The notes under the pieces: generated by a model | Seen by the model: only the letters and a program-made list of their open reading frames with translations | Databases searched by the model: none | What the model was told of the DNA's origin: nothing | Source: a virus | Taxonomy: Duplodnaviria > Caudoviricetes | Direction: 5' to 3' (one strand) | IMG/VR virus record: IMGVR_UViG_3300027374_000478 | Coordinates: 95,092-159,091 of that record | Length of the DNA: 64,000 nt | Made by a program: the position numbers and the translations under genes | Part shown: positions 7,170 to 49,081 of the stretch, one piece after another | Layout of the letters: every line of letters starts with the position of its first letter | Numbering within the stretch: position 1 is the first letter of the stretch

Positions 7170-7231
7170 AAAGGATACGAATGTTCACTGGTGAAGAAAG
7201 CTGCGCAGCTACTAAGTAATGGTGAACAAAA
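7170..7231 (+). promoter_or_regulatory. Palindrome-containing leader element A
   Basis: AAAGGA, then stem 7182-7189/7221-7228 enclosing AGCTGCGCAGCT; 12-codon uORF 7181-7219. Confidence 0.6.
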
Positions 7232-7876
7232 ATTAAGGTATTAGAATTATTCGCAGGTACAAGAAGTATTGGTAAAGCATTTGAAGCAAGAGGTCATAAA
7301 GTTTTCAGTGTTGAATGGAATAAAGATTTTGAAAACATCGACCTATATGAAGATATTAGTAAAGTTACAGCACAAGACATTTTAAACAAGTTTGGAAAAC
7401 CTGATGTTATTTGGGCGAGTCCTGACTGTACGACTTTCAGCATTGCGGCAATTAGTCATCACAGAAGAAAGAATCCAGAAACAGGAAGTCTTGAACCTAT
7501 CAGTGATTATGCAAAGTTCTGTGATAAAGTAGATCAACATGTTATTTCGCTTATCAAAGAATTAAATCCTACATACTACTTCATCGAAAATCCCCGTGGT
7601 GGCATGAGAAAGATGTCTTGGATGCAAGACTTACCACGATATACGGTTACATATTGTCAGTATGGCGATGAAAGAATGAAACCTACTGATATCTGGACTA
7701 ATCATCCAAATCCTAAGTTTAAACCCATGTGTAAGAATGGCGATCCATGTCATGTATCTGCTCCAAGGGGAGCTAAAACAGGAACACAGGGACTTAAAGG
7801 TAGTATTGAACGAAGTAAAATTCCATCAGCATTATGTGAGCATATTGTTGATATTTGTGAAAAAAACATTAGGTAA
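7232..7876 (+). CDS. C5 cytosine DNA methyltransferase-like protein (ATT start, or a 1-nt frameshift after ATG 7219)
   Basis: Frame of ORF 7604 extends to 7232: IKVLELFAGTRSIG (motif I), WASPDC (IV), IENP (VI). Confidence 0.8.
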   Translation: MKVLELFAGTRSIGKAFEARGHKVFSVEWNKDFENIDLYEDISKVTAQDILNKFGKPDVIWASPDCTTFSIAAISHHRRKNPETGSLEPISDYAKFCDKVDQHVISLIKELNPTYYFIENPRGGMRKMSWMQDLPRYTVTYCQYGDERMKPTDIWTNHPNPKFKPMCKNGDPCHVSAPRGAKTGTQGLKGSIERSKIPSALCEHIVDICEKNIR

Positions 7877-7930
7877 TATTTCAACGGGAGTCATGAACCC
7901 ATGAAAGATTCACAAAATAACAAATTAGAG

Positions 7931-7990
7931 AAAGGATATAACAAGTAATTCCGGATAAATTAGCGTTGCAACGCCTTGTAGATAAGGCAT
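7931..7990 (+). promoter_or_regulatory. Double-palindrome leader element B
   Basis: ACAAG/CTTGT stem enclosing TCCGGA and GCGTTGCAACGC; close sequence match to element D at 18530. Confidence 0.65.
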
Positions 7991-9379
7991 TTGGAAAGTA
8001 ATAATAAAAGATTTAGTTTATCAAAAAATTGGAAACTGGTAAATTTCTGTGAGTTTGATAAGTATGCGACTAAAAGCTATTGTGCAATTCACAGAGTAGA
8101 TGAGAATTTAAACCTTGGTGATATTACTGAGGTTGATGGAACAAAATTAGAAGATTTTAATATGATTTGTGGAGGGAGTCCTTGTCAGGATTTCAGCGTA
8201 GCTGGTAAACAAAAGGGTTCTGTGTGGACTTGTAATGGTTGTGGACATGAATATAACCCTCTAACGGTACATTGGAGTCAGAGAGATAAATGTCCTAATT
8301 GTGGAAGTAATAATATTGAAAAAACAAGATCGTCACTTCTTGTTGAGTATTTGAGAGTAATCCGAGGAAATAAACCTAATTTTGGAATGTATGAAAATGT
8401 TAAAAATATTGTGGGTAAACAATTCAGAGATACTACATTCAAATTATTTGAAGATGAGTTACATGAGTATGGCTACAATACATATTGGAAAGTGCTGAAC
8501 GCAAAAGATTATGGTATTCCTCAAAACAGAGAGCGAGTATATCTGATCTTTATCAAGAAAGACTTAGACAACGGTAAGTTTGTGTTCCCTAGAGAATTTG
8601 ATAATGGAATTCGTTTGAAAGATGTTTTGGAAGATGAGGTAGATGAAAAATATTATATTTTTGATGATAAAGTGCAGAGATTTTTAACAAATCTAAATAC
8701 TAATACTTCTTTACTATATGATCCGTGTCAGGTAAAAAGAGAGGGTAAATCAAGGGAATATAATGATTACTGTCCAACTCTCACTTCAAGAGACTATAAA
8801 GATCCCAGATTGGTAAATGAAAATGTAGTAAAACAAGTCGGAAATATTTCTGATTGCAATGGGAATTGGAAGAATCCACAAGTGGGGAGAATTTATGATC
8901 CCGATGGTTGTTCACCGACATTAAATACTTGTGGCGGAGGTAGCCATGAACCTAAGATTGTTCAGGTTGGTAATGTAAATCCATCTGGTAAAGGTATGAA
9001 TGGTAATGTATTTTCAGAAGATGGACTAGCACCAACTTTAACAACAAATAAAGGTGAAGGAAATAAAATTTTAACAGGTATTAGAATCCGCAAACTAACG
9101 CCAAAAGAAACTTTCAGGCTTATGGGATTTTCTGATTCGGCATATGACGCTGCAAGCAAAGTTGTTAGCAACAGCCAGCTTTATAAACAATCAGGGAATT
9201 CAATAGTAGTAGATGTTTTATATTACATATTAGTTGAGTTATATAAGGCAATGCCGTACCTATTTGATGATTTAAAACTGAGCAGTTTCTTCTCAGGTAT
9301 TGGTGCATTTGAGGCTAGTTTGGACAGATTGTATGAAAGCATTAATACTGGAAATTTTACCAAACCACAAGCGGAGTAA
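7991..9379 (+). CDS. Circularly permuted C5 cytosine DNA methyltransferase with Zn-ribbon insertion
   Basis: GGSPCQDFS (IV), ENV (VI), PQNRERVY (VIII), RKLTPKE (IX), YKQSGNS (X), then motif I FFSGIGAFE at the C-terminus. Confidence 0.9.
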   Translation: MESNNKRFSLSKNWKLVNFCEFDKYATKSYCAIHRVDENLNLGDITEVDGTKLEDFNMICGGSPCQDFSVAGKQKGSVWTCNGCGHEYNPLTVHWSQRDKCPNCGSNNIEKTRSSLLVEYLRVIRGNKPNFGMYENVKNIVGKQFRDTTFKLFEDELHEYGYNTYWKVLNAKDYGIPQNRERVYLIFIKKDLDNGKFVFPREFDNGIRLKDVLEDEVDEKYYIFDDKVQRFLTNLNTNTSLLYDPCQVKREGKSREYNDYCPTLTSRDYKDPRLVNENVVKQVGNISDCNGNWKNPQVGRIYDPDGCSPTLNTCGGGSHEPKIVQVGNVNPSGKGMNGNVFSEDGLAPTLTTNKGEGNKILTGIRIRKLTPKETFRLMGFSDSAYDAASKVVSNSQLYKQSGNSIVVDVLYYILVELYKAMPYLFDDLKLSSFFSGIGAFEASLDRLYESINTGNFTKPQAE

Positions 9380-9392
9380 ATTCTGCTTGTGG
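9352..9392 (+). promoter_or_regulatory. Candidate programmed -1 ribosomal frameshift signal
   Basis: In-frame A_AAT_TTT heptamer 9352-9358, 6-nt spacer, 12-bp hairpin 9365-9392; -1 frame open to 9951. Confidence 0.75.
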
Positions 9393-9951
9393 CGAAGAAG
9401 TAATATGTATTGATGATACACAAGGTTTTGATGGTGCTAGATTTTACAAAGATTATGTTCCAACATTGCGAAGTCAAAGAAGCGGATTAAAAGTTGCTTG
9501 TATTAAAGATAAAGAATATTTAGATATTTGTATCAACGATAGAGGAAAGGTAAATAAAAAACCACAGATAACATATGGGCATTCGCCAACACTTATTTCT
9601 GAATTTCATGGGAATTTACCAAAAGTTGTTGAGGTAAGAGGTGCCGCTATGCGTGGTAGGTACAATTCAGATGGAAAAACAGAACAGAAAATAGAAGTAA
9701 GAGATGATGAGTTGTCTAATGCAATTACAACTGTACAGAAAGACTCGTTAATTGTAGAAAATAAGTCTTGGTTCGAAAAGAAATATACAGAGTTTTATGA
9801 GAAATATGGTTATATTCCAGAATATTTTGTTCCATATAACGGAACTGAATGTAAAGATTATGCATCGACTTTAACTGCAAATTCTAATACAAGTCCAACA
9901 CATTCTGGGACGATTTTAATTATGGAGATTGGCAAAGAAAAGAAGTCTTAA
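9358..9951 (+). CDS. -1 frame extension of the C5 MTase (target-recognition-like repeats)
   Basis: Repeated PTL/STL/AITT segments like the MTase variable region; no own RBS. Confidence 0.7.
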   Translation, partial: YQTTSGVNSACGEEVICIDDTQGFDGARFYKDYVPTLRSQRSGLKVACIKDKEYLDICINDRGKVNKKPQITYGHSPTLISEFHGNLPKVVEVRGAAMRGRYNSDGKTEQKIEVRDDELSNAITTVQKDSLIVENKSWFEKKYTEFYEKYGYIPEYFVPYNGTECKDYASTLTANSNTSPTHSGTILIMEIGKEKKS

Positions 9952-9971
9952 AACCCACGTTTCAAAGGAAG

Positions 9972-10670
9972 GTGATTAATATAAATATTGAGCATAATTG
10001 GATAGAAACATTTATAACAGAAAGTAAGAAAAAAGAATTAGAAATAAGAAGGAAAATTGATAAACAAAAAACAATCATGAAAACAATTACTAATGAAGAA
10101 TCTAGCGTTGTGGATGATTTTTGCATGACTTTACAAAGACGTTCTTCGAGTTGGGGTGATTTTATTGTAAGTTTGGATAAAGTAAATGAAGCATTATTAG
10201 CTGGAATACCATTAAGAGAAATAATTTATAACTATTTAGAAAATAAAAAATGTTCAAGTTATGGAGGAGAGAATATGATGGATCATTATGTCGGAGCATT
10301 TAATACAGAAATGTTACCAATTGAAAAAATTTTAACATGTAGAGAGAAAGATATTAGAATTGTAGATGTAAATCTAATTGTGCCAGACAAGGTTGTAGAA
10401 GTTACATTTGCAGATGGAACAAAAGAGAAATCTGTATGTAGAGAACCTGATACATTCAGTTTGGAATCTGCAATTTCTATCTGTATTTCCAAGAAGATTA
10501 TGGGTGGATCATCTGCTTATAATAATGCGATTAGACGTGGTATGAAGGTCTATGAGAAGAAGTTAGAGTATGCAAAGAATAACACAAATCTTCCAGATAA
10601 TCCAGACTACAAGCGGATCAATGAATTTGTAGCAAGTGTGAATGAGAGAGTTGTGAAAGGAGAAGTATGA
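9972..10670 (+). CDS. hypothetical, probably chimeric protein
   Basis: 232-aa ORF with an internal GGAGGAG RBS/ATG near 10275. Confidence 0.6.
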   Translation: MININIEHNWIETFITESKKKELEIRRKIDKQKTIMKTITNEESSVVDDFCMTLQRRSSSWGDFIVSLDKVNEALLAGIPLREIIYNYLENKKCSSYGGENMMDHYVGAFNTEMLPIEKILTCREKDIRIVDVNLIVPDKVVEVTFADGTKEKSVCREPDTFSLESAISICISKKIMGGSSAYNNAIRRGMKVYEKKLEYAKNNTNLPDNPDYKRINEFVASVNERVVKGEV

Positions 10671-11380
10671 AGAGACAGATTAGAAGAAATGTTTTTGAAA
10701 CAAATTCGAGTTCTATGCATAGTTTAACAGTTATGAAGAGAGATGATAAATATACTCCAGAAGAATTTTTAGACGGAATATATTTATGTAAAGACGAAGA
10801 TACAGGCGAGGAATCTTGTGTTTGGGAGCCTTGGGATCACGATTTGGAATTTGGTAGGAGTCCATTTAGGGCTTTGGGAACATTTACAGATAAATGGTTG
10901 TATGCGTGTGCTTCGTTGGTTCATGACTATAATGATGATGTTTATAAAGAACTCGTTGCACTTGCATTGAAATATATACCAGGTCTTAAAAAGATCAAAC
11001 TGCCAATGGACAGTGATAGTATTGCAGATAAAAATGATGAAGAACATAAAAACGATGACTATTATCAGAAGTATGGTAAGACAGAAGATGAACTAAAAGA
11101 ATATTTATCACAGAAAGAAAAGGATTGGGGTTTTGAACTTGAGTATTGGAAATCTTCAAATGGCTGGTGGCATTATGACAAACCATGTACAGGATATGTT
11201 GATGAAGATATTCTAAGTGGATTTTTAGAGCATGAAGGTATTTCTCTTGAAGAATATCTTATAAATAAGAAATATGTCGTCATTCAAGACGGTGATGAAT
11301 ATTGCTATTGGGACAATATGAAGCAAACAGGGCTAGTAAATATGGATATGATTGATCATGAATATCCAAGAGAGGATTAA
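10667..11380 (+). CDS. FETNSSS-motif protein 1
   Basis: N-terminus MKRQIRRNVFETNSSSMHSL. Confidence 0.85.
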   Translation: MKRQIRRNVFETNSSSMHSLTVMKRDDKYTPEEFLDGIYLCKDEDTGEESCVWEPWDHDLEFGRSPFRALGTFTDKWLYACASLVHDYNDDVYKELVALALKYIPGLKKIKLPMDSDSIADKNDEEHKNDDYYQKYGKTEDELKEYLSQKEKDWGFELEYWKSSNGWWHYDKPCTGYVDEDILSGFLEHEGISLEEYLINKKYVVIQDGDEYCYWDNMKQTGLVNMDMIDHEYPRED

Positions 11381-11387
11381 GGGATCA

Positions 11388-11834: not shown

Positions 11835-11850
11835 GGAGGAAGTTTATTTT

Positions 11851-12222: not shown

Positions 12223-12228
12223 GAAAGG

Positions 12229-13131: not shown

Positions 13132-13135
13132 AAAT

Positions 13136-13225: not shown

Positions 13226-14347
13226 ATAACGAGAGTTTACAAAGAGAAACAGTTCTTAATATTTGATTTTGAAGATGGAAGGACTGTCAAATATGATTTT
13301 GCCACAAAAACTTGTATAGGGATCAAAGGTAAACCAGTAAAAGGATTGCAGAGCCAATTATCAGGCATAACAATGAATCAGATAATTGAGTATTGTGCTG
13401 ATGAAAAATATGCTAAATTTCTCAAATTTGTACAGAATAGATACCCAAATTACATATCAAATATAGGTACAATTCTTTCAAAAGTTCCACAGTATTCAAA
13501 ATTTGAACAGATATTTTCAGCAGGATTCGATAGTATTGTAGATAGAAATTTTACAAAAACAATCAATGATATTCCAAAATCTTTAATCAAAATAGCGAGA
13601 GATAGACAAATAAAAATATCAGATAGATTTTGTGATTATTGGAAAAGAAATCCTGATGCTCATTTTCTGGCGTATCAGCTTGATTATATATCTTTAACAG
13701 ATGAAGACATCAATAAAATTTTAATGAGAGAAAGTTATGATTATGTTGATGGGATTAGTAATTACTTTTCCTATTTTAATAAGTTGATTGAAGAATATGG
13801 ATATAATCCGAAAGCATTGTTGCTGTATCTTGACACTCTAAAAACTTTTGAAGCAATAGAAGATATGCGTCATTTACTTGGTGAATTGGTAGATTATGCA
13901 AGAATGATGAATACGATCAGTCCAAAATTTGATAAATATCCACGGAATTTTCTTACTACACATAAGATTGCATGTAGAAATTATAATAGATTAAAGAAAG
14001 AATTTTCTGAGGAGATATTTAAGACAAGAATAAATAAGAATTTGGAATGTATATTTGGGGATTATCAGTTTATTTATCCTGATAGCACACAAGAAATTAA
14101 AGATGAGGCAGTAGCACAAAATAACTGTGTGGCTTCTTACATAGATAAAGTTATTGATGGAGAATGTCATATTATGTTCTTGCGTAAGAAATCTAATCCT
14201 AAAGAGAGTCTTGTCACTATTGAGATACGAAACAATCATATTGTACAAGCCAGAAGAAGATTTAACGATCCTGTAACATCAGAAGACCAAGAAGCAATTG
14301 ATAAATGGAATAAAAAATTTGCAGATAAAGAAAGGAAAACAGCATGA
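13226..14347 (+). CDS. PcfJ-domain protein (ATA start)
   Basis: EA..QNNCVASY..IMFLRK..LVTIEIR..QAR motif; frame opens at ATA 13226 after GAGGTG. Confidence 0.8.
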   Translation: MTRVYKEKQFLIFDFEDGRTVKYDFATKTCIGIKGKPVKGLQSQLSGITMNQIIEYCADEKYAKFLKFVQNRYPNYISNIGTILSKVPQYSKFEQIFSAGFDSIVDRNFTKTINDIPKSLIKIARDRQIKISDRFCDYWKRNPDAHFLAYQLDYISLTDEDINKILMRESYDYVDGISNYFSYFNKLIEEYGYNPKALLLYLDTLKTFEAIEDMRHLLGELVDYARMMNTISPKFDKYPRNFLTTHKIACRNYNRLKKEFSEEIFKTRINKNLECIFGDYQFIYPDSTQEIKDEAVAQNNCVASYIDKVIDGECHIMFLRKKSNPKESLVTIEIRNNHIVQARRRFNDPVTSEDQEAIDKWNKKFADKERKTA

Positions 14348-14778
14348 TTACAAAAGGAAATGAGATTAGGCTGATTAAGCCGATGGGAGTATTTGATAAT
14401 ATCGGAGAAGTTTGCGAAGTGACAGATGTATCAGAAGATGGCGTTATCAGTTTTAAATTTGGTGGCTGTCATCTTGGGTGTATGTCTTATAACGAATTTG
14501 AAAAGTATTTTGAATTAGTAGAGAAGGAAGTATCAGAAGAAGAAAGTGATGAAGATGCTGATTCTATGGCAGAAAATAAAGAAGTGTATGACTTAATTGA
14601 GTGGTGTAAAGAGAATGATAAACCATTTTATCTAAAGCTATATTTAAATGTACTGGAAAAGAGAAATGGTATTACACAGTCAATTCTTGGAATGTATAAA
14701 AATAGGTTATGTTTGGTGCAGTTTAAGAATAAAACTTTCAAGGATTCAGATTTTAGTGGATTAAAAATTATGCTTTAA
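14344..14778 (+). CDS. hypothetical, possibly truncated/chimeric protein
   Basis: ORF runs through weak sites 14725/14740 into the end of the retron RT. Confidence 0.55.
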   Translation: MITKGNEIRLIKPMGVFDNIGEVCEVTDVSEDGVISFKFGGCHLGCMSYNEFEKYFELVEKEVSEEESDEDADSMAENKEVYDLIEWCKENDKPFYLKLYLNVLEKRNGITQSILGMYKNRLCLVQFKNKTFKDSDFSGLKIML

Positions 14779-15739
14779 TAGTAGCATTGCGAACATGATT
14801 ATAAATATTACTGAATTTTGTTGGTTCAGTTTGTTGTGCGGCCACTATTAAACCCTGAAGTCTCTTTTGAGAGTGTTCGTCATTTGGATTATTCTTATAA
14901 TTACGCAATTCATTCATTACTTTATGGCTTAATGAGTTAGGAATATTGAGGTTCCCATTAGGAGAAATGATAGTTCCAGTAACAGATTTTGGATAAGTAT
15001 TTGTATAGTATTTTACTTTTGATCTTGAAAGCCTATATAAATATTTAGAAATAATATTATAAATTATTTCTTTGTGCTTGTGTGAAATTTCGTGTTGTGA
15101 AGAAAAGGTAATATCATCTACATATATAGACATAATTATCTCATTTTTATCACAAAAATTTTGTAGTTCATCAAACATATTATGATTCGCTAAATAAGAT
15201 AGAATTTGACTTGCAGGAGAACCGGAAATTAAATGATTTGTAGTTTTTATTCCCTTAGATAAAAGGAATTGCTCAATAGGTTCTGATTCCTGAATATCAC
15301 ATAAAGTTAAGTCAATAGTAACAAAATTAGTGAGAATATTGGCTATATCAGAAGGTGTTTTTAAATCAACTTTAAAAAAATTATACACTGTTTCACGAGT
15401 TATACATGGGAAAAATGCTGTTAAATCTATTTTAAAAAGAAAATTGCAGTTTTGGTGTATAGCAGCATTATCAACATAAGATTTTCCTTTTATACCAGAG
15501 AATGCATTTGAAGGAACTTCTATTTTATTTAATTCGCATTTTATGTTTTTCTGAATTTTTTTAAGAGAATCCGAAGGAGCTTCAATTAAACGAGGTTTTG
15601 GATTTGCTTGTATATATGGATTAATCTGCTTTGCAACAAAATTTTGATTTAGATATTCTTTTGTAGGAACTTTTAAAAGTATCATTAAATATTTTTTGGT
15701 GGATAATTTATACAAATTTGATTTTGTTGGATCTATCAT
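14768..15739 (-). CDS. retron-type reverse transcriptase
   Basis: NAAIH (region X NAxxH), KIDLTAFFP, SGSPASQ, YVDD, SVTG (region Y VTG). Confidence 0.9.
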   Translation of the reverse strand: MIDPTKSNLYKLSTKKYLMILLKVPTKEYLNQNFVAKQINPYIQANPKPRLIEAPSDSLKKIQKNIKCELNKIEVPSNAFSGIKGKSYVDNAAIHQNCNFLFKIDLTAFFPCITRETVYNFFKVDLKTPSDIANILTNFVTIDLTLCDIQESEPIEQFLLSKGIKTTNHLISGSPASQILSYLANHNMFDELQNFCDKNEIIMSIYVDDITFSSQHEISHKHKEIIYNIISKYLYRLSRSKVKYYTNTYPKSVTGTIISPNGNLNIPNSLSHKVMNELRNYKNNPNDEHSQKRLQGLIVAAQQTEPTKFSNIYNHVRNATIKA

Positions 15740-15771
15740 AAATAACCTCAATATTCAAATAAATGCTGGTG

Positions 15772-16403: not shown

Positions 16404-16528
16404 ACACTTGGCTATCTACCAGAGTGTTCAATCACTCAATCAGATAAATTTTGTTGTTTTCATTTTAACCTCTTTTTTTTGGAATGTTCAAGTTTGTGGC
16501 TTGAGCATTCTGATAGGTAGTCAAGTGT
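16404..16528 (+). ncRNA. Long RNA stem upstream of homing endonuclease-like gene
   Basis: 16404-16431 pairs with 16501-16528: 27 of 28 pairs, four of them G-U. Confidence 0.55.
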
Positions 16529-16551
16529 GGAAAGGAATATATGGAGGTGGT

Positions 16552-17319
16552 ATAACGGACAGATTAGGCGAAACAAAAAGTAATAATAAAGGTACTTTAA
16601 TGAAAATAGTTTCTTATAGAAGTAGCGAGGATCTTGATGTTGAGTTTATAGATGATTTCCATCATATAAAGAAACATCAAACATATGTAAATTTTCGAAG
16701 AGGACAAATCAAAAATCCATATGATAAAACAGTATTTGGCATTGGTTATTTAGGTGCAGGAAAACACAAAATGCAATATCTAGATACAAAGACAAATACT
16801 AAAACATATATGTCTTGGAAGAATATGCTTGATAGATGTTATGGAAAACAAAATAGAGATTTACATCCAGCATATTTCGATATATCTACTGTTTGTAATG
16901 AATGGCTCAATTTCCAAACATTTGCTGACTGGTATGAAGAAAGAGAATATAAATGCGATGGCAGATTACATTTGGATAAAGATATTTTACATCCAGGGAA
17001 TAAGGTATATTCTCCAGATAACTGCATTTTAGTTCCTCAAAGAATTAATATGCTATTTGTAAATAAACCAAATAACCGTGGTCTTCCTAATGGCATTAAA
17101 AAGTGTGTCAGAGGATACTCTGCAAAATATAATCATGAAGAACTTGGTAGTTATTTGACACTTGAAGAAGCATATTCTGTTTATGTTAAAAAGAAGAAAG
17201 AAGATATTATTAAAATTGCCAACGAGTACAAAAATATTATTCCTGATTATGTTTATGAAGCACTTATTCAGTATGAATTCAATATTGAAAATGATAAGAA
17301 TTACTGCAAGATAGCATGA
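16552..17319 (+). CDS. HNH-type homing endonuclease-like protein (ATA start)
   Basis: Y.SWKNMLDRCY, VCNEWLNFQTF..W, LDKDIL.PGNKVYSP.NC motifs. Confidence 0.8.
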   Translation: MTDRLGETKSNNKGTLMKIVSYRSSEDLDVEFIDDFHHIKKHQTYVNFRRGQIKNPYDKTVFGIGYLGAGKHKMQYLDTKTNTKTYMSWKNMLDRCYGKQNRDLHPAYFDISTVCNEWLNFQTFADWYEEREYKCDGRLHLDKDILHPGNKVYSPDNCILVPQRINMLFVNKPNNRGLPNGIKKCVRGYSAKYNHEELGSYLTLEEAYSVYVKKKKEDIIKIANEYKNIIPDYVYEALIQYEFNIENDKNYCKIA

Positions 17320-17615: not shown

Positions 17616-17620
17616 CACGG

Positions 17621-17675
17621 AAAGGAATAAAGGTGCTGCTGCCGTGAGATGATCATACCTTTCTGGGTGAAGAAA
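17621..17675 (+). promoter_or_regulatory. Palindrome-containing leader element C
   Basis: AAAGGA, then AAAGGT/ACCTTT stem enclosing ATGATCAT. Confidence 0.5.
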
Positions 17676-18394
17676 ATAAAATACGTTGGAAGTAAAAACA
17701 GAATAAGCAAGTATATTGTACCTATTATTCAAAAGTGTATTGACGAAAATAATATAAAAATATATTATGAGCCGTTTGTTGGTGGGGCCAATATGATTGA
17801 CAAGATTAAATGTGAAAATCGTATTGGTAATGATATACATAAAGAATTGATTGCAATGTGGAATGAAATTCAGAATGGTTGGGAAATACCATTGCATATT
17901 TCAGAAGAAGAATATAATAAAGTTAGAAATAGTAAAAAAGATTATCCAGATTATTATGTAGGTCTTATAGGGTTTAATGCAACTTTTGGGTCTAAATATT
18001 TTGGTGGGTATGCAAGAGGATTTAAAGCAGACAAAGTTACACCAAGAGACATCCCAAATGAAGCATTAAGAAACTTATCAGAACAAATTCCCAATATACA
18101 AAATATTAAATTTTTATGTAGCGATTATAGAAACAATGAGTATGCTAATTTACGGGATGCAGTTATTTATTGTGATCCTCCGTATCAAGGTACAACTAAA
18201 TATGCTACAGATTCATTTGATTATGATATGTTTTGGGATTGGTGTAGAAAAATGAGTAAAGAAAATTGGCTTTTGTTAGTGAATATAATGCTCCTTCGGA
18301 TTTTGAATGTATTTGGTGCAAAAATGTTACCACAAGTTTAAAAGTTCATGAACATGAAAGCAGAGTAGAGAAATTATTCACATATAAGAAATAG
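17676..18394 (+). pseudogene. D12-class N6-adenine methyltransferase, frameshifted near 18270
   Basis: KYVGSK, EPFVGG, YCDPPY; C-terminal VSEYNAP..EKLF lies in another frame. Confidence 0.8.
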
Positions 18395-18529: not shown

Positions 18530-18589
18530 AAAGGAGTTATACAAGTAATTCTAGGTAAAATGTATGCGCATACCTTGTAAGTACAATAA
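18530..18589 (+). promoter_or_regulatory. Double-palindrome leader element D
   Basis: AAAGGAG, TACAAG/CTTGTA stem enclosing CTAG and GTATGCGCATAC. Confidence 0.65.
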
Positions 18590-19633
18590 TTGCAAGGAAA
18601 AGATAAAAATATAAATTCAAAATCTGCTGATCTGATGGAGTTAATCAGTAATGCTCCACAAAATCAAACAATAGGAGATAATTTAGTAAGAGCGTGGTCA
18701 AAGATAAACAACGATAAATACAAGAAAATTGTATGTGCTTTATCTGGCGGATCAGACAGTGATGTAATGGCAGATATTATTTGGCAATGTGATAAAGATG
18801 GTAAGGTAGAATATGTTTGGTTTGATACTGGTTTAGAATATCAGGCTACAAAAAACCATCTGAACTTGTTAAGAGAGAAGTATAATATAGAAATTAAACC
18901 ATATAAAGCAATCGTTCCTATCCCTACAAGTTGTAAAAAATATGGACAACCATTTGTTTCAAAAAATGCTTCTGAAATGATTGATAGATTACAATGTCAT
19001 GGATTCCAATGGGAAGATGAACCATTAGACATATTATTGCAAAGATATTGTGAATGGAATACAAAGAAACAAGATTGGGTTGGATGTAAAGGTGCGTTAA
19101 TGTGGTGGTGTAATGCAAATGAATCAGTCCAATTTAATATTGCATATAACAAATATCTAAAGGAGTTCATGATTCAAAATCCTCCAAAGTTCAAAATTTC
19201 TTCAAAGTGTTGTAAATATGCAAAGAAAGATGTATTACATAAGCTTGTTGCAAATGAAGGATATGATTTAAATGTATTTGGGGTTAGAAGGGCTGAAGGA
19301 GGTATTAGGCAAACAGCATATAAATCCTGTTTTGATGAAAATGGAGAAGGCTATGATAATTACAGACCTTTGTTTTGGTACACAAATTCAGACAAAGAAG
19401 ATTATGAAAACCATTATGGAATTGTACATAGTAAGTGTTATACGGAATATGGGTTAGAGAGAACGGGTTGTGCTGGTTGCCCATTTGGAAGAGATTTTGA
19501 GCAGGAGTTGGAAGTTATAGAGAAGTATGAACCAAAGCTATTTGTTGCTGTGAATAATATTTTTGGTGACAGTTATGAGTACACAAGAAAGTATAGAGAA
19601 TTCTGTAAGGAGATGGACGAGAAGAAAAAATAA
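18590..19633 (+). CDS. PAPS reductase family protein
   Basis: SGGSDS, FDTGLEY, CC..AKK, GVRRAEG, RTGCAGCPF motifs. Confidence 0.85.
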   Translation: MQGKDKNINSKSADLMELISNAPQNQTIGDNLVRAWSKINNDKYKKIVCALSGGSDSDVMADIIWQCDKDGKVEYVWFDTGLEYQATKNHLNLLREKYNIEIKPYKAIVPIPTSCKKYGQPFVSKNASEMIDRLQCHGFQWEDEPLDILLQRYCEWNTKKQDWVGCKGALMWWCNANESVQFNIAYNKYLKEFMIQNPPKFKISSKCCKYAKKDVLHKLVANEGYDLNVFGVRRAEGGIRQTAYKSCFDENGEGYDNYRPLFWYTNSDKEDYENHYGIVHSKCYTEYGLERTGCAGCPFGRDFEQELEVIEKYEPKLFVAVNNIFGDSYEYTRKYREFCKEMDEKKK

Positions 19634-19727: not shown

Positions 19728-19781
19728 AGGAGGAAATGAGGTTTCTGCGCAGAATAAATCATGATTTACTCCTAAATAAGA
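19728..19781 (+). promoter_or_regulatory. Double-palindrome leader element E
   Basis: AGGAGGAAAT/ATTTACTCCT outer pairing; TTCTGCGCAGAA and TAAATCATGATTTA inside. Confidence 0.7.
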
Positions 19782-20663
19782 ATGGAATATCAAAAGAAAA
19801 TCAAATGTGAATTATATAGGGACTCTATGCAGAATTATAAGAAGTATGCAATTCCACCTGCTCAGTTAATTATTGCAGATGTTCCATATAATGTAGGAAA
19901 TAATTTTTACGGTTCAAATCCGATGTGGTACAACGGAGGAGACAACAAAAAAGGTGAAAGTAAATTAGCTGGTAAAGCAGCTTTCAATTCTGATTTTAAT
20001 TTTAATCTATATGAATATTTTCATTTTTGTTCCAAGATGCTTAAAAAAGATGATACTAGACCTGTTCCGAGAGGACGCAGTAGTGACTCACCTTGTATGA
20101 TTGTATTCTGTTCTTTTGAACAGATTCAGACACTTATTAAGGCGGCAGAAAGGCATGGGTTCATTCATTACATACCACTAATCTTTTGCAAGAATTATAG
20201 TCCACAGGTACTCAAAGCTAACATGAGGGTTGTGGGAGCTGCTGAATACGCACTCCTATTATATAGAGATAAATTGCCAAAATTCAGAAATGGTCTTCAA
20301 GTTGATGAAAATGGTAAGAACATTCCAGGAACAGGACATATGATCTTTAACTGGTTTGATGGTGGAGATGAGGATGAGTGGGGAAGAACTTATCATAGCA
20401 ACAGTACATATATGATGTGGGAAAAAGATAAGTCTAAGGAAGTTCCCAAAATCCATCCGGCTCAGAAGCCAGTAGCAGTTCTGAAACGTTTGATTGAGAT
20501 ATTTACTGATCCTGGTGATGTGGTTATTGATCCATGTGCAGGTTCTGGTACAACACTAAGAGCAGCTTATGAACTTGGCAGAAGTGCTTTCGGTTTTGAA
20601 ATTGACCGTAATTTCTACCAGAGAGCAAAAGATGAAATGTTGAATTTTGCAAAAGAAGAGTAG
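19782..20663 (+). CDS. N4/N6 (beta-class) DNA methyltransferase
   Basis: ADVPY, HPAQKP, DPCAGSGTT, GFEID motifs. Confidence 0.9.
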   Translation: MEYQKKIKCELYRDSMQNYKKYAIPPAQLIIADVPYNVGNNFYGSNPMWYNGGDNKKGESKLAGKAAFNSDFNFNLYEYFHFCSKMLKKDDTRPVPRGRSSDSPCMIVFCSFEQIQTLIKAAERHGFIHYIPLIFCKNYSPQVLKANMRVVGAAEYALLLYRDKLPKFRNGLQVDENGKNIPGTGHMIFNWFDGGDEDEWGRTYHSNSTYMMWEKDKSKEVPKIHPAQKPVAVLKRLIEIFTDPGDVVIDPCAGSGTTLRAAYELGRSAFGFEIDRNFYQRAKDEMLNFAKEE

Positions 20664-23839: not shown

Positions 23840-23893
23840 GGGAGGCAAAGAGGTTTGTCATGACAGAAAAGTGCGCTTTACTCCTAAATAATA
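23840..23893 (+). promoter_or_regulatory. Double-palindrome leader element F (palindrome order swapped relative to E)
   Basis: GGAGG..GAGGTT-TGTCATGACA-AAAGTGCGCTTT-ACTCCTAAATA. Confidence 0.7.
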
Positions 23894-25069
23894 TTGAAAA
23901 TAGCAATTATAGATGCGGATCTGATAGGTAGGGACAAGCACAGGTTTCCTAATCTAGTTTGTATGAAACTATCAGGTTATTATAAAGAACTTGGTGCTGA
24001 AGTTGAATTGAAAATGGATTATGAAGAATTAGCAGCATGTGATAAAGTATTCATTTCCAAAGTGTTTACTGACACACCAATAGATGAAGAGATTTTGAAA
24101 CTTTCAAATGTAGAATATGGCGATACAGGATTCTTTTATGACAAAGCTCCGAAACTTCCTAATGAAGTAGAACATCATATGCCGGATTATAATTTGTATG
24201 ATGAGTGGGTGAATGACAGATTAAACGAAGGTGGTAAGAGAAAGGATTTTACATATTATCTTGATTATTCAATTGGCTTTATGAGTCGTGGATGCATCAG
24301 ACAATGTAGTTTCTGTGTGAATAAGAATTATAAATCATGTGAAGTTCACAGTCATTTATCTGAGTTTCTGGATGAGAGCAGACCATATATCTGTTTGTTG
24401 GATGACAATGTACTGGCTTGCAAGGACTGGAGAAATATATTTGAAGAACTTATTGCGACAGGTAAGAAATTTCAGTTCAAACAAGGTTGTGACGAGAGAC
24501 TTCTTACAGATGAAAAATGTGAGGTTCTGTTTGAGAGATCAAAGTGGATAGGGGACAGGATATTTGCATTTGACAATATTAAAGATAGAGAAGTAATAGA
24601 AAGAAAGTTACAGATGATAAGGAGACACACTAATGATCAGATTAAATTCTATACATTTTGTGCGTACAATCATGATAACATAGGTGTTTATGATGAGGAG
24701 TTTTGGGTTAAGGATATAGAAGATCTGTTTGAGCGAATCAAAATTCTAATGACTTATGGGTGCTTGCCTTATGTAATGAGATTCAAAGATTATGTTCTGA
24801 GTCCATATAAAGGGATTTATATCAATGTTGCGAGTTGGTGTAATCAGCCAAGTCTATTTCGTAAGATGAGTTTTGCTGAGTACAGTATGGCGAGAGGTAT
24901 GAGTAATGAAAACTACAAAAAATATAAAATGGATTTTGATTTATACTTAGCAGATGGCAATAAGAAAGGTTCGTCATGGAGATATTACGAAGAATTCACA
25001 CGCAAATATCCAGAGATTGCAGAGAAGTATTTTCATATGAAGTGGAATTATTCAAATAGGAACAGTTAA
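23894..25069 (+). CDS. radical SAM protein
   Basis: SRGCIRQCSFC, LLDDN; N-terminal FPNLVCMKLS. Confidence 0.85.
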   Translation: MKIAIIDADLIGRDKHRFPNLVCMKLSGYYKELGAEVELKMDYEELAACDKVFISKVFTDTPIDEEILKLSNVEYGDTGFFYDKAPKLPNEVEHHMPDYNLYDEWVNDRLNEGGKRKDFTYYLDYSIGFMSRGCIRQCSFCVNKNYKSCEVHSHLSEFLDESRPYICLLDDNVLACKDWRNIFEELIATGKKFQFKQGCDERLLTDEKCEVLFERSKWIGDRIFAFDNIKDREVIERKLQMIRRHTNDQIKFYTFCAYNHDNIGVYDEEFWVKDIEDLFERIKILMTYGCLPYVMRFKDYVLSPYKGIYINVASWCNQPSLFRKMSFAEYSMARGMSNENYKKYKMDFDLYLADGNKKGSSWRYYEEFTRKYPEIAEKYFHMKWNYSNRNS

Positions 25070-41317: not shown

Positions 41318-41325
41318 GTGATTGA

Positions 41326-44643: not shown

Positions 44644-45555
44644 ATAGATAATTATAAGGTATATGCTCATGTCAATAAAATAAATGGTAAATTATATATT
44701 GGTCAAACTGGACAAGAAAATATTAAAGATAGATGGGATAGTGGACACGGGTATAAAAGTTGTGTCGCGTTCAATAGGGCTATAGAAAAATATGGTTGGG
44801 ATAATTTTCAGCATTTAATATTGTTTGAAAATTTATCTCTTCCAATGGCAAATATTATTGAAGCAGAATTGATTAAAAAATATAAAACTACAAATAGTGA
44901 ATTTGGATATAATATTACTTCTGGTGGAATGAATTATAAAATGAGTGCAGCAACAAAAGAAAAAATAAGACAAGCACATTTAGGGAAACATAATTCAGAA
45001 AAATCTAAAGAAAAACTAAGAAGAACATGGGAAATTAAAGGACATCCATTGCAAGGTAAACATCATACAGAAGAAACTAAAAAGAAAATTGGTGATGCCA
45101 ATAGATGGAGATTAAAAACAGAAAAAACTATTGAAAAATTGAGGATTGCAATGACTGGAAGAAAAGGCGCAACACATACAGAAGAAACAAAGCAACTTTT
45201 ATCTGAATTAGCAAAAGAGAGATGTTCTAAACCAGAAGATAATCCGTTTTATGGAAAACGTCATACAGAAGAATCAAAGAGACAAATGAGTGTGGCTCAT
45301 AAAAACATTCCAAAAGAAAAACATGGGAGATATGGTAAATCAGTATCGCAAAATACAATAGAGGCGATTAGGAAGGCACATAATAAACAGGTTTTACAGT
45401 ATGACAAAGAAGGTAAATTTATTGCGCAATATGAATCGGTAGTAGAGGCAGCGAAAGCAATAGGATGCAGTAAAAGTGCAGTTAGTAAATGCTGTACTGG
45501 TATAAATCATACATGCAAAGGATACATATTTAAGTTTATGGAAGAGGTGACGTAA
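44644..45555 (+). CDS. GIY-YIG homing endonuclease with NUMOD3/NUMOD1 repeats (ATA start)
   Basis: Upstream frame gives YKVYAHVNKINGKLYIGQT; repeated GKHHTEETK. Confidence 0.85.
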   Translation: MDNYKVYAHVNKINGKLYIGQTGQENIKDRWDSGHGYKSCVAFNRAIEKYGWDNFQHLILFENLSLPMANIIEAELIKKYKTTNSEFGYNITSGGMNYKMSAATKEKIRQAHLGKHNSEKSKEKLRRTWEIKGHPLQGKHHTEETKKKIGDANRWRLKTEKTIEKLRIAMTGRKGATHTEETKQLLSELAKERCSKPEDNPFYGKRHTEESKRQMSVAHKNIPKEKHGRYGKSVSQNTIEAIRKAHNKQVLQYDKEGKFIAQYESVVEAAKAIGCSKSAVSKCCTGINHTCKGYIFKFMEEVT

Positions 45556-45559
45556 TTAG

Positions 45560-47812
45560 TTGGATAATGATGAATTATATACATTTAAAGTAATAATTAG
45601 TACAGAAAAATATTACAACGAAGACACGACTTGGGGATCATATATAGGTTATACAGATGATGATATACCATTCTGTGTAAGAGAAAGTAATAATTCACTT
45701 ATGGAAGATAATTTTAAGCCCAAGAATTTTTGTAATATTGTTGGTAAAATGCAACAGTTATCTATTGGATGTGAATATCAGATAAAAGCCAAACATGAAT
45801 TTAATAAAACATATGGACATCAATATCAACCAATTACCATATATGCAATAATGCCACAAACAAGGGATATGCAATTACTGTTCTTGAAGACAATTATACC
45901 AGAATGGATGGCAGAAAATTTAATAGAAGCATATCCTAATTTGGTTAATGATGTTGCTAATGGAGAATTAAAAGAAATAGAGTATGACAAAATAAAAGGC
46001 GTAAGAGAAATTACATGGCGAAGAGTTAGAGAAAAAATCATTAATAATTTTTTAATATCTGACATTCTCATAATGCTAAAGCCAGTTGGTGTTACATACA
46101 CAATGATTAAAAAACTTTTATCTGATGAACCAAACCATATTCTCTTAAAAAAACAATTGGAAGATAATATTTATTTGCTATGCAAAATTAACGGTCTTGG
46201 GTTTAAAAAAGTCGATGACTTGGCATTAAAATTGAAGCCAGAACTCATAAATACAACTGAAAGATTGGTTGCGTTTATAAAATACTATTTCACAGATTTG
46301 GGAGAAAGTAGTGGTCATACTTGGTGTTCAGTTAAAATTCTAAAGTCGGCAATAAGTAATAGTGTTCCTGAGTGTGCCGATAAAACGGATTGGTTATTGG
46401 AAAACAATGAGTTTTTACACATATCAGAAGATAGAGTAGGGCTGAAATATTATCACGATATCGAAATGCAGATTTATAATATACTGCTTGAAAAGTCTAA
46501 GAAACAGACGGACATTAATATCTCTGATGAAAGAATAGAACAGGCGATCAGACATGCAGAAGAAGAACAAGGATTTCAATATGTAGTAGAACAGCTTGAC
46601 ACAATCAATAAAAGTTTACATAGAACAATCAGCCTAATAACTGGAAAAGCTGGCACTGGTAAGACTTCCATTATGAGAGCGATTGTAAAAGCATATACAG
46701 AGAACCAATTTACATTAACGGCATCTGCTTTATCAGCTATGGCAGCACAGAGAATAACTGAAGCAACATCATTTCCTGCTATGACGATTCATAGGACATT
46801 AGGATGTAAAGGTTTGAATAAGTTTGATTTTAATAAGGATAATCACTTGATTACAAGCGTTGCATTTCTTGATGAGGGAAGTATGGTAAATGCCAGTTTA
46901 TTTCTCCATTGGTTAGAAGCTATTGATGATAACACAAGAATTATTATTTCTGGTGATCACAAGCAGTTACCGCCAATAGGATTTGGTAATGTATTTTCAG
47001 ATTTGATAGAAATGTTTGATGATACAGTGGTAAGCAAATTAGTGAAACCGATGAGACAAGCTGAGAAATCTGGTATTTTAGTAGACGCAAATCTAATCCG
47101 TGAAAATATCAACCCTATAACTGAAAAGTTACAACCGAGAATTATTCATGGTGAGTTACAAGATATGTATTATATGTTCCGTACAAATAGACAGTCATTG
47201 TTTGATATTGCAGTTAAGACATTCCTAAAATCAGTAGAATCTGATGGAATTGATAATGTTGTTATTGCAGTTCCACGAAGAAAAGATTGCTTGAATAGTA
47301 CAAATGAGTTAAATAAAACGATTCAGGAAAAGTTGTTAGGAGATGTATTGCAAAGTATATCTGGTTTTGAGATGACATTTAAATTGGGTGCTAAAGTAAT
47401 GCAGACAGTAAATGATTACGATAAGAATGTGTTTAATGGAGAAATAGGATATATAACAGAAATCAGTGAGAGACAAAATGGTAAAAAGAAAGAAGAGTAT
47501 TGCGTAGTAACATATACTGATATTTTTGGTAAGGATAAATTGATTGAGTACACAAAGAAAGAACTGGCAGCTTTGGATCTTGCTTATGCGATGACGGTAC
47601 ATAAGTTACAGGGAGCCGGTAGAAAGATTGTGATTGGTATTATTGATAATACGCACCATCAGCTTTTAGACAACTGTATGTTATATACACTACTGACAAG
47701 AGCAAAGAAGAGATGCTTATTATTGGCAGAGCCACAAGCATTTTTACAGTGTATTCGCACAAGTCATAATAAACGGAACACATGGATGATGTTAGAAGAA
47801 AAAGTAGCATAA
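45560..47812 (+). CDS. recD2: RecD2-like SF1 helicase
   Basis: GKAGTGKT, LDEGSM, GDHKQLPPIG, AYAMTVHKLQG, YTLLTRAK. Confidence 0.9.
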   Translation: MDNDELYTFKVIISTEKYYNEDTTWGSYIGYTDDDIPFCVRESNNSLMEDNFKPKNFCNIVGKMQQLSIGCEYQIKAKHEFNKTYGHQYQPITIYAIMPQTRDMQLLFLKTIIPEWMAENLIEAYPNLVNDVANGELKEIEYDKIKGVREITWRRVREKIINNFLISDILIMLKPVGVTYTMIKKLLSDEPNHILLKKQLEDNIYLLCKINGLGFKKVDDLALKLKPELINTTERLVAFIKYYFTDLGESSGHTWCSVKILKSAISNSVPECADKTDWLLENNEFLHISEDRVGLKYYHDIEMQIYNILLEKSKKQTDINISDERIEQAIRHAEEEQGFQYVVEQLDTINKSLHRTISLITGKAGTGKTSIMRAIVKAYTENQFTLTASALSAMAAQRITEATSFPAMTIHRTLGCKGLNKFDFNKDNHLITSVAFLDEGSMVNASLFLHWLEAIDDNTRIIISGDHKQLPPIGFGNVFSDLIEMFDDTVVSKLVKPMRQAEKSGILVDANLIRENINPITEKLQPRIIHGELQDMYYMFRTNRQSLFDIAVKTFLKSVESDGIDNVVIAVPRRKDCLNSTNELNKTIQEKLLGDVLQSISGFEMTFKLGAKVMQTVNDYDKNVFNGEIGYITEISERQNGKKKEEYCVVTYTDIFGKDKLIEYTKKELAALDLAYAMTVHKLQGAGRKIVIGIIDNTHHQLLDNCMLYTLLTRAKKRCLLLAEPQAFLQCIRTSHNKRNTWMMLEEKVA

Positions 47813-47816
47813 AAAT

Positions 47817-47864
47817 TGTCTATATATAGCGGTTTGCAAAACTCAAAACCACTATATATAGACT
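47817..47864. promoter_or_regulatory. tandem NrdR-box-like pair 3
   Basis: TGTCTATATATAGCGG (47817) and CCACTATATATAGACT (47849), 32 bp apart. Confidence 0.6.
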
Positions 47865-47907
47865 GAAATGGCAATGAAATAGGACTTTTATGGTATATAT
47901 TTAAAAA

Positions 47908-48897
47908 CTAATTATTTATTGTATTTTTAGATTGAAGAAGATTATAAAATGATTTTCCCAGTTCTGTAAGTACTAACACTTCTCTTTCATTTATTACTTT
48001 TCGTTTGATTAATTCAAAATTGCAATAATAAATATATATATTATTTAGAAAATATTTTTTTAAGTTAAGAATTGGTAAAATTAAGGAAGGAGATGGTAAT
48101 GGGATACCACTAATAAAATTGTCATAATTTAAAACAAAAAAATCAAATGCACTAACTGAGTGTATAAATATGTTGTCGGAAGTATAGGGAAATTTTTTCT
48201 TTTTAAATAGTTCTATTATTTTGGTAAAATAGTAGTCTCCATATTGATCATTTTCTATTAGTTCCAACTGGTTTTGTAGGACAAGTATTTCTTTGCTTAA
48301 ACTTTGTACTTTCCTATTTAATAAAGAATTTTCTTTCATTATAAAAACATTATCTTTTAGTAGTTTATTTGAATTATTTTCGTTGTTATATCTTGTCCAG
48401 CCAATTAAATCATAAGAATTGAGAAATTCATTAAGGGTAGAATGTATGACAAGTTTTATATCTTTACAATCATCAACCATACGAATAATTTTTGACATAA
48501 CCAATGATTTAAAAGATTGATATTTATCAAGTGCTTTTTGTTCCATTACATCAGATAAACCAAATAAATTAATTTTTGTGGTCAAAAATGATTCACTTAA
48601 TACAACAGCAAAAACGGGGATACCTTTGTATAAAGCATATTCATATTCAAGTTGGGTATAACTTTTTCCTGATTTAGTTTCAATAGTACCATAACGTCCA
48701 CCAAGAATAAGCATATATACATCGGATCCATCAATCCATTTATAAATTGTTTTCAGTTGTGATTCATTCCCTGCTTTAAATAATTCCATGCCAGCAGGAA
48801 TATGACCCGCATCAAGAATGGCTTCAACGGCAGCTTGACGTTCTTCTTTTAAATCATTATATGTAGATGAAACAAAAACTTGTAATTTTTTATTCAT
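47908..48897 (-). CDS. DUF4062 (TIR/NDT-like) domain protein, putative defence gene
   Basis: QVFVSSTY.DLKEERQ..GMELF..GGRYG..SYTQLEYEYA; own promoter; flanked by sites 47875 and 48992. Confidence 0.85.
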   Translation of the reverse strand: MNKKLQVFVSSTYNDLKEERQAAVEAILDAGHIPAGMELFKAGNESQLKTIYKWIDGSDVYMLILGGRYGTIETKSGKSYTQLEYEYALYKGIPVFAVVLSESFLTTKINLFGLSDVMEQKALDKYQSFKSLVMSKIIRMVDDCKDIKLVIHSTLNEFLNSYDLIGWTRYNNENNSNKLLKDNVFIMKENSLLNRKVQSLSKEILVLQNQLELIENDQYGDYYFTKIIELFKKKKFPYTSDNIFIHSVSAFDFFVLNYDNFISGIPLPSPSLILPILNLKKYFLNNIYIYYCNFELIKRKVINEREVLVLTELGKSFYNLLQSKNTINN

Positions 48898-49024
48898 TAG
48901 TATTACCCCTTAGATATGATAGGAAAATTATACCACAAATGCAGAATGTAGTAAATATAAAAACATTTGATTGGAACAACGCCAAATTAAATGAAAGATA
49001 GGTTTCAACAGTAAAAACAAAACG

Positions 49025-49081
49025 AAAGGAGCATAGAGATTTGTGCGCACAGAAAATCATGGTTTGCTCTAAGTAGTTAAA
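49025..49081 (+). promoter_or_regulatory. Double-palindrome leader element G
   Basis: AAAGGAGCA..TGTGCGCACA-AAATCATGGTTT-GCTCT; aligns with E and F. Confidence 0.7.

Follow-up and report, generated by a model that had tools for sequence, protein, structure and literature searches.

Phage DNA methyltransferases are a main route of escape from host restriction and are harmful in excess, and control of their synthesis has been worked out in detail only rarely, as for mom of phage Mu. In the Mu com-mom system, mRNA structure at the translation start silences a modification gene that is harmful when over-expressed. For T4 genes 38 and 25, the Gold and Nivinskas laboratories reportedly described split ribosome-binding sites, in which a hairpin brings a distant Shine-Dalgarno sequence (SD) to the start codon. 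Here we analyzed the last 64 kb (the window; G+C 32%, + strand purine-rich) of the 159,091-bp single-contig virus record IMGVR_UViG_3300027374_000478, where seven short leaders (A to G; Table 1) separate a strong SD from the start of a DNA-modification gene. All seven leaders proposed by the initial annotation were found at its positions, and profile matches gave the downstream genes that it had named, which encode two C5, two D12, and one N6/N4 methyltransferase, a PAPS-reductase-like protein, and a radical-SAM protein. We conclude that the feature is real, widespread, and undescribed in Rfam and in the literature searched. On the comparative sequence evidence presented below, these leaders are probably cis-acting RNAs through which translation initiation is controlled in phage genes for DNA modification, mostly those of DNA methyltransferases.

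Judged from their sequences, the seven leaders fall into four classes (E/F/G, B/D, A, and C) of one design. A consensus SD is followed by a 40-50 nt insert that is closed by a helix and contains two short palindromes, and then by a start codon (AUG, UUG, GUG, or AUU) that lacks an SD of its own and lies 40-57 nt from the distant one. This division replaces the single family suggested at first. In the window, a covariance model built on E/F/G-type leaders (R1) matched only E, F, and G (53, 47, and 50 bits, respectively; next match, 14 bits), and leaders B and D were alignable with each other, in agreement with the two groups recognized from the start. The SD-to-start distance of about 45-55 nt given earlier was wrong for leader C, where the start is 22 nt (ATG 17649) or 40 nt (GTG 17667) away. 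The poor SD noted beside the starts was borne out, as 41 of the 64 long + strand frames of the window have an SD-linked start and all seven leader genes are among the 23 that do not.

Class A resembles T4 genes 38 and 25 in that the SD is 5-6 nt before the helix and the start is 0-5 nt after it. Unlike the T4 sites, the leaders here have an insert of ≈40-50 nt, a predicted three-way junction, and two obligate palindromes; they are recurrent, portable, and tied to methyltransferases, and the E/F/G class adds a lock in which the SD pairs with a complementary sequence (anti-SD). The likeness to Mu com-mom is that a DNA-modification gene stands behind a structured translation start. Mu, however, has one hairpin, which is opened by the zinc-finger protein Com, whereas no Com-like partner was identified here.

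The strongest signal in these leaders is self-complementarity that extends through the centers of the palindromes. We aligned 57 distinct leaders, with each element written as a full palindrome (570 cells). All 570 cells pair, the two central bases included, whereas shuffled sequences averaged 79% and did not reach this value in any of 500 shuffles. Because the sequences are related, these statistics exaggerate independence (we count only ≈8-10 independent U·G events). In this alignment, 113 cells are altered on both sides, and the only non-Watson-Crick cells are U·G (GCUGGC, ACUGGU, GUCGGC, UCCGGG, UCAUGG, and GUGCGC); two A·C-type exceptions occur in other sets (CACG in one leader, and one class-A copy). 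Palindrome 2 of leader F, which had been read as bulged, is likewise a wobble palindrome (AAAGTGCGCTTT; G-C, U·G, G-C). In scans that left the core unspecified, element 1 had a palindromic 4-nt core in 40/42 leader-like sequences versus 2/54 chance matches, and the 6-nt center of element 2 was palindromic or a U·G variant in 41/42 versus 2/54. The rule is also obeyed by 17/17 true prophage copies. The central "pair" of element 2 occurs as AU, UG, CG, GC, or UA, and the sequences span CAGCTG, CTGCAG, GCTAGC, GTGCAC, TCATGA, ACATGT, ACCGGT, GATATC, GCCGGC, TCCGGA, GAATTC, CTATAG, GTATAC, GACGTC, TCTAGA, and CACGTG.

Within this genome, perfect palindromes of at least 10 nt are not enriched overall (70 in the window versus ≈100 in shuffles), and those with G+C-containing cores cluster in the leaders; over the whole 159 kb, such palindromes occur in leader context at these seven places only. 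The 64-kb window contains 18 GCGC sites, five of which are inside the ≈385 nt of leader (expectation ≈0.1). Adjacent bases are unable to pair inside a hairpin, and hairpins of 3-4 bp with a 4-nt loop are only marginally stable. The pairing of the central bases, together with ordinary monomer folds, therefore implies that self-complementarity itself is selected, and an ordinary hairpin does not explain why the palindromes are obligate while their cores are hypervariable. In a tree of the methyltransferase gene adjacent to the leader, the core alleles GCGC, CGCG, and CCGG are scattered, with well-supported branches forcing at least 8, 6, and 3 changes, respectively, and some genes ≈1% apart have cores that differ at all four positions. 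This pattern looks like alleles maintained in the population and reshuffled by recombination, or very fast switching.

In the leader, the palindromes may serve RNA self-annealing or may form a symmetric DNA site. The HIV-1 dimerization initiation site (DIS), the oskar 3' untranslated region, and the hatchet ribozyme are palindromic RNA dimerization elements, and HIV-1 lineages carry GCGCGC or GUGCAC, so that identity varies and self-complementarity is kept (PMC7357161). The leaders also contain short self-complementary sequences of changing identity. They differ in that the palindromes of those RNAs sit in larger purine-flanked loops and none is in a bacterial or phage mRNA leader, whereas here the whole 10-14 nt element is self-complementary. 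The guanidine-II (mini-ykkC) riboswitch has two hairpins whose ACGR loops pair upon ligand binding (PMC7357161), and it shares with the leaders two small hairpins before the start, self-complementary loop centers, and translational control, probable here; by contrast, the cores here differ from each other, vary freely, and are never ACGR (GCGC, CGCG, CCGG, GGCC, CATG, and others). Kissing between the two hairpins of one leader was rejected, as the two cores are not mutually complementary. The self-complementary kissing loops considered in the initial annotation stand as to self-complementarity, and the RNA-RNA pairing itself is a prediction, with a dimer gain of -16 to -20 kcal/mol versus about -7 for shuffled sequences, as expected of any palindrome.

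A tentative extension, which we consider possible but not the likelier case, is that the palindromes anneal two copies of the leader RNA in competition with the closing helix and so form a dose-sensing mRNA dimer switch. Duplexes of 10-14 bp would form between copies, translation would fall or switch as leader RNA accumulates during replication, and the fast-changing cores would be strain-specific labels against cross-pairing of co-infecting phages. Under such a model, central bases would be expected to pair, U·G to be tolerated, and cores to change yet stay self-complementary, and competition with the closing helix would supply the switch. We know of no precedent for a switch of this kind in bacterial or phage mRNAs.

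Exact symmetry about the center is also what a symmetric DNA site requires, and the palindromes could instead be double-stranded restriction-modification-type sites (4-6 bp), read by phage or host methyltransferases or nucleases, where methylation or binding controls the gene and the RNA helix merely loops the insert out. The cores are classic Type II targets (GCGC, CGCG, CCGG, GGCC, CATG, GATC, TGCA, and CTAG), and with their flanks they give CTGCAG, CAGCTG, GCTAGC, GAATTC, GATATC, GACGTC, TCTAGA, CACGTG, and others. Core alleles scattered over close phages resemble a balanced polymorphism, six core types occur in this phage alongside at least seven methyltransferase genes, GATC stands ahead of a Dam-family gene, and GGCC and CGCG, the two most-avoided 4-mers of the window, are unused in its leaders. 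However, near-identical methyltransferase genes have different cores and unrelated genes stand behind the same leader. About one-quarter of element-2 centers are U·G variants that break DNA symmetry (GCTGGC, ACTGGT, GTCGGC, and TCCGGG), and A·C variants are almost absent; strand-biased C-to-T mutation could produce this asymmetry without selection on RNA. Moreover, the commonest leader type has the non-palindromic center CGAG in element 2, orientation is fixed relative to SD and start, and phages with GCGC and CGCG cores have equal densities of those sites elsewhere. The equal densities also led us to drop the notion that the cores are "safe" in the phage host. These results weaken the methylation-sensing sites proposed earlier, and we consider control through the DNA unlikely.

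The position and covariation of the closing helix point to an RNA that controls translation. In class A, the helix covaries (AGUCUC/GAGACU, AGUCUU/AAGACU, GUACC/GGUAC, and UGUUCAC/GUGAACA in the window), and folding leaves 6-10 nt between SD and start in five lineages, which is the arrangement of a split ribosome-binding site. The outer stem claimed for leader A exists, but its 5' strand, paired with 7222-7228, is also the 5' half of a second palindrome (TTCACTGGTGAA), which is palindrome 1 of this class. The folded spacing in B/D is 13-15 nt. The E/F/G leaders do not have a split site since their SD sits in the helix, which is formed by SD and anti-SD and ends ≈8 nt before the start. At least five SD/anti-SD variants occur (UAGGAG/CUCCUA, UGGAG/CUCCA, GGAGU/ACUCC, GGAGCA/UGCUCC, and AAAGGAA/UUCCUUU), and cognate 5' and 3' flanks form a mean of 7.1 contiguous bp, a value matched or beaten in 1 of 2000 partner permutations. 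An SD paired as in an SD-sequestering operator was found for E/F/G, with covariation, and for C, where the minimum-energy fold pairs the SD with the anti-SD. The loop-out suggested earlier to join SD and start consequently fits class A, fits B/D less well, and fails for E/F/G, where the closing helix is a lock. In E/F/G, the 3' half of palindrome 2 is also complementary to UAAAG, the bases that directly follow the SD, and therefore the long SD helix competes with palindrome 2, as had been predicted for leader E. The mRNA stabilizer STAB-SD of Bacillus thuringiensis cryIIIA, an unpaired consensus SD near the 5' end that acts on decay, is similar in having a consensus SD far upstream of the start in a Firmicutes mRNA, outside ordinary initiation; it differs in that the SD here is paired or bridged to the start.

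Homologues of gene D in other phages have unrelated hairpins that likewise sequester the SD, or an inverted copy of the leader. The covariation of the helix, the SD/anti-SD geometry, and these SD-burying hairpins therefore place the element at the level of translation initiation. In our model of translational control, the insert would fold as a small three-way junction whose closing helix encloses both of the short self-complementary elements. The helix of class A, and more loosely that of B/D, would leave the SD free and bring it near the start, so that initiation would depend on the fold. In E/F/G, the SD would be locked by the anti-SD, and the gene would be translated weakly, or only upon opening of the lock. 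Part of each inner element could also pair with one of the two closing-helix strands, so that anything engaging the palindromes would shift the balance between folded and open states. Architecture, distribution, helix covariation, the palindrome rule, and the association with methyltransferase genes are shown by the comparisons made here; we infer an action on translation that results in low or gated production of enzymes whose excess is harmful.

We surveyed the spread of the leaders in IMG/VR and in prokaryotic genomes (one genome per species). E/F/G-type leaders occur in many gut-phage contigs of IMG/VR and in Lachnospiraceae/Clostridia prophages. Homologues of gene E were found at ≈80 IMG/VR loci, nearly all with such a leader, in at least six sequence types. 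The nearest named relative of gene E is in the Ruminococcus gnavus phage phiRM10 (79% identity); in the phiRM10-type leader, the SD AAAGGAG is 47 nt 5' of the true ATG, with CCGGCCGG and GGTATACC between. This relative, together with the leaders of Lachnospiraceae prophages, agrees with a Lachnospiraceae prophage of the gut as the source of the window. A megablast search of the INPHARED phage set gave no near relatives. Two pattern scans blind to the downstream gene, followed by filtering with the model, gave 58 leader copies. Every copy has the sense orientation and lies between a strong SD and the start codon of an open reading frame (ORF) on that strand, and such an ORF begins within ≈15 nt of 56/58 model matches and 16/17 genome matches. 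Methyltransferases follow 22 of the 58 copies (N6_N4, C5, phrog_757, phrog_2882, phrog_11619, PF02384, and an SNF2-N6_N4 fusion). Over all searches, the downstream genes represent six or more methyltransferase families that are unrelated to one another, and also the F-type radical-SAM protein. The 17 true prokaryotic copies are all from Clostridia-type genomes, except for two in bins labeled Bacteroidales; 10 precede methyltransferases, two F-type radical-SAM genes, and three genes for Cys-rich proteins.

Classes A and B/D also recur. Leader B is the same in three IMG/VR contigs of related phages, and contigs of 95-177 kb have a conserved class-A leader ahead of the same small C5 methyltransferase gene. 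Within class E/F/G, leader F is the same, with AAAGTATACTTT as palindrome 2, before homologous radical-SAM genes in Eubacterium plexicaudatum ASF492 and a related phage contig. Leader C is a singleton, as its gene has one distant homologue only, with an ordinary upstream region and no similar leader. From this tabulation across genomes, the link between leaders and DNA methyltransferases is strong and crosses protein families, and it is not exclusive: the claim that the leaders stand only ahead of modification genes holds in this window and fails elsewhere. Within the window, methyltransferase genes at 6550-7029 and ≈51614-52366 and two radical-SAM/SPASM genes (12229 and 21404) do not have such a leader.

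Several results weigh against translational control of modification genes as the full account. Some downstream genes have no known connection with DNA modification: the commonest in the scans (32/58 copies, mostly in one phage group) encodes a 203-aa double-zinc-ribbon protein, one copy of the 58 precedes a NUMOD4/HNH endonuclease and another an excisionase-like helix-turn-helix protein, and 1/17 prokaryotic copies precedes a possible sigma-like protein. With the lock open, the SD of E/F/G leaders is still ≈13 nt or more from the start. The folding energies of the seven monomers are unremarkable (z +0.2 to -2.3), and palindrome 1 is often absent from minimum-energy folds. Finally, a plain three-way junction fails on the strongest signal, as the central bases are useless to a monomer hairpin, and the relatedness of the aligned leaders, noted above, reduces the weight of that signal itself.

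In nine IMG/VR contigs of ≈50-60 kb, the gene for the double-zinc-ribbon protein is preceded by a G39P-type helicase-loader gene and carries an E/F/G-type leader; 3-4 kb further downstream, on that strand, another leader precedes a gene for a methyltransferase or an HNH protein. Searches with the double-zinc-ribbon protein, a candidate partner acting in trans, gave no informative relatives. We rejected it as a trans regulator in this phage, where tblastn (E<=1e-3) found no homologue in the genome.

The same leader heads many unrelated genes in mosaic regions, which would also be expected if it were a portable junction for swapping accessory genes, with the palindromes as recombination hotspots or footprints. 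T4-type phages offer a parallel in the PeSL cassettes, which are said to carry an early promoter (as Arbiol et al. reportedly described in 2010) and which, like the leaders, are short repeated stem-loop elements heading accessory genes in plastic regions; they differ in having no SD/start bridging, and we know of no palindrome rule described for them. In IMG/VR 3300029305_001467 and 3300032167_000162, a D-type leader together with the first five codons is inverted between TTGCAA palindromes, an arrangement that fits a cassette boundary, as does a TGAAA-N6-TTTCA hairpin 17 nt upstream of leader G. A boundary, however, would leave unexplained the SD/anti-SD/start geometry, the helix covariation, and the tolerance of U·G, and hypervariable cores would lower homology rather than aid it. 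Integron attC sites are another possible parallel, and the aligned leaders have no visible R/L-box attC signature; no R-box consensus was found, and position is fixed relative to SD and start. A role as cassette boundary, which would be compatible with a translational one, thus seems improbable as the explanation of the leaders. The inverted leader lies 5' of a 75%-identical gene D homologue (473-600 of the 3300029305_001467 locus extract), where a local AAGGG precedes the TTG start by three nt; it could be an evolutionarily fixed inversion or an invertible switch. TGAAA-N6-TTTCA hairpins with non-palindromic loops occur at gene boundaries (5002, 5803, 18405, 27690, and 48992); one ends 17 nt 5' of the SD of leader G, and another is ≈125 nt 5' of leader D.

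The distant SD could also serve a short upstream ORF (uORF), with the modification gene translated by restarting ribosomes only. Leader A has a 12-codon frame that ends in TAATG at an ATG formerly considered as the gene start, 13 nt before ATT 7232, and the 4-codon frame of leader C stops 1 nt 5' of its ATG. Frames of 11 codons are present in leader G, in the commonest IMG/VR type, and in one other type, with a UUG or GUG start 4-10 nt past the SD and an end 4-9 nt before the gene start. Yet frame, length, and stop position are not conserved, the peptides are unrelated, and in leaders B, D, and the phiRM10 type the SD is not followed by a start codon; the frame of the commonest double-zinc-ribbon leader overruns the gene start by ≈40 nt. 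We regard uORF coupling as quite improbable. Bypass of the gene-60 type was rejected, as we found neither matched codons for take-off and landing nor a frame running continuously from upstream. A promoter in the leader that yields leaderless mRNA was also rejected, because -35/-10-like strings are weak and inconsistent between classes and helix covariation would be unexplained.

Gene A most likely starts at ATT 7232, as judged by comparison with its homologues. Between the in-frame TGA at 7223-7225 and motif I, there is no ATG, GTG, or TTG, and homologues have ATT or GTG exactly where gene A has ATT 7232, three codons after an in-frame stop. Because of this conservation, the one-base frameshift considered for gene A is not needed and was dropped in favor of an AUU start. 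In the N6_N4 gene at ≈51614, a conserved N-terminus (IEINKIYQSD...) precedes the first canonical start (ATG 51656), and ATA 51614 sits 7 nt past GGAGGAG. Methyltransferase genes in the window seem to use non-canonical start codons.

Most of the target genes use S-adenosylmethionine (SAM), and the initial annotation raised sensing of SAM or S-adenosylhomocysteine (SAH). A riboswitch for such a small molecule would open or close the SD:anti-SD helix, and the small SAM-class riboswitches are similar in size (≈50 nt) and in sequestering the SD. The survey does not support sensing of SAM or SAH. The four unrelated leader classes share a design alone, hairpin tops and loops are hypervariable, little junction sequence is conserved beyond GAGGUU, and some targets have no link to SAM. 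Rfam 15 gave no matches in the whole window at gathering score, and at E<=10 around the seven leaders it gave only noise-level matches to small nucleolar RNAs, CRISPR, and long non-coding RNAs, far below thresholds. A small-molecule riboswitch is thus very unlikely. The same searches agree with the earlier statement that the leaders do not belong to a described family. Full-text literature searches found no description of them. A catalogue of structured RNAs of the human microbiome lists a few candidates near methyltransferase genes (PMC8040213), and leader strings were absent from the 200 of its 408 supplementary files that were searched. The main text of PMC5737381 has no discussion of a methyltransferase motif.

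Table 1. Leaders, their structural elements, and downstream genes (window coordinates)
Feature	Position	Strand	Description
Leader A (class A)	7170..7234	+	SD AAAGGA 7170-7175; probable start ATT 7232
Leader A closing helix	7182-7188; 7222-7228		TGTTCAC with GTGAACA
Leader A palindromes	7184-7195; 7199-7210		wobble TTCACTGGTGAA (central U·G); perfect AGCTGCGCAGCT
Leader A uORF	7181 to 7217-7219		12 codons, ATG to TAA
Gene A	7232-7876	+	PF00145 (C5 methyltransferase)
Leader B (class B/D)	7931..7993	+	SD AAAGGA 7931-7936; start TTG 7991
Leader B closing helix	7941-7945; 7975-7979		ACAAG with CTTGT
Leader B palindromes	7950-7955; 7963-7974		TCCGGA; GCGTTGCAACGC
Gene B	7991-9379	+	PF00145 (C5 methyltransferase) plus zinc ribbon
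Leader C	17620..17669	+	SD GAAAGGAA 17620-17627, plus second AAAGG
Leader C uORF	17633 to 17645-17647		4 codons, GTG to TGA; ends 1 nt before ATG 17649
Leader C palindrome	17649-17656		ATGATCAT, includes ATG 17649
Leader C anti-SD	17657-17663		ACCTTTC; alternative start GTG 17667
Gene C	17649-18341	+	PF02086 (D12 methyltransferase)
Leader D (class B/D)	18530..18592	+	SD AAAGGAG 18530-18536; start TTG 18590
Leader D closing helix	18540-18545; 18574-18579		TACAAG with CTTGTA
Leader D palindromes	18551-18554; 18562-18573		CTAG; GTATGCGCATAC
Gene D	18590-19633	+	PF01507, PAPS_reduct / phrog_424
Leader E (class E/F/G)	19728..19784	+	SD AGGAGG 19728-19733; start ATG 19782
Leader E palindromes	19743-19754; 19755-19768		1: TTCTGCGCAGAA; 2: TAAATCATGATTTA
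Leader E anti-SD	19769-19773		CTCCT
Gene E	19782-20663	+	PF01555 (N6_N4 methyltransferase)
Leader F (class E/F/G)	23840..23896	+	SD GGGAGG 23840-23845; start TTG 23894
Leader F palindromes	23856-23865; 23868-23879		1: TGTCATGACA; wobble 2: AAAGTGCGCTTT
Leader F anti-SD	23880-23885		ACTCCT
Gene F	23894-25069	+	phrog_9298, radical SAM
Leader G (class E/F/G)	49025..49084	+	SD AAAGGAG 49025-49031; start ATG 49082
Leader G palindromes	49042-49051; 49054-49065		1: TGTGCGCACA; wobble 2: AAATCATGGTTT
Leader G anti-SD	49066-49070		GCTCT
Gene G	49082 onwards	+	PF02086 (D12-type methyltransferase)

Gene G changes frame at a GGGG run (≈49116-49119). From ATG 49082, the frame encodes MTQKLEIPCSYQG, followed by four codons and a stop; the -1 frame continues as GKQRLAKQIVD, which restores the usual Y-x-G-G-K motif. 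This frame change could be a sequencing error in the homopolymer, a pseudogene, or programmed slippage. A reverse transcriptase gene on the minus strand (14768-15751; 327 aa; PF00078, E 2e-15) lies inside the island of modification genes and adjoins a PcfJ-like gene (13346-14347). An HNH endonuclease gene (16408-17319; phrog_953, E 4e-49) lies immediately 5' of leader C and its D12 gene, and it too is without an SD-linked canonical start.

Perfect self-complementarity with rapid turnover of sequence is unusual for an mRNA leader, and the palindrome rule points past an ordinary hairpin, to RNA-RNA self-recognition or to a link between the leader and restriction-type DNA sites. At ≈50 nt, the element is small, and it is modular. 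A portable leader over many unrelated methyltransferase families in phages of gut Firmicutes would be a general device for anti-restriction control and a useful marker by which to locate these genes in viromes.

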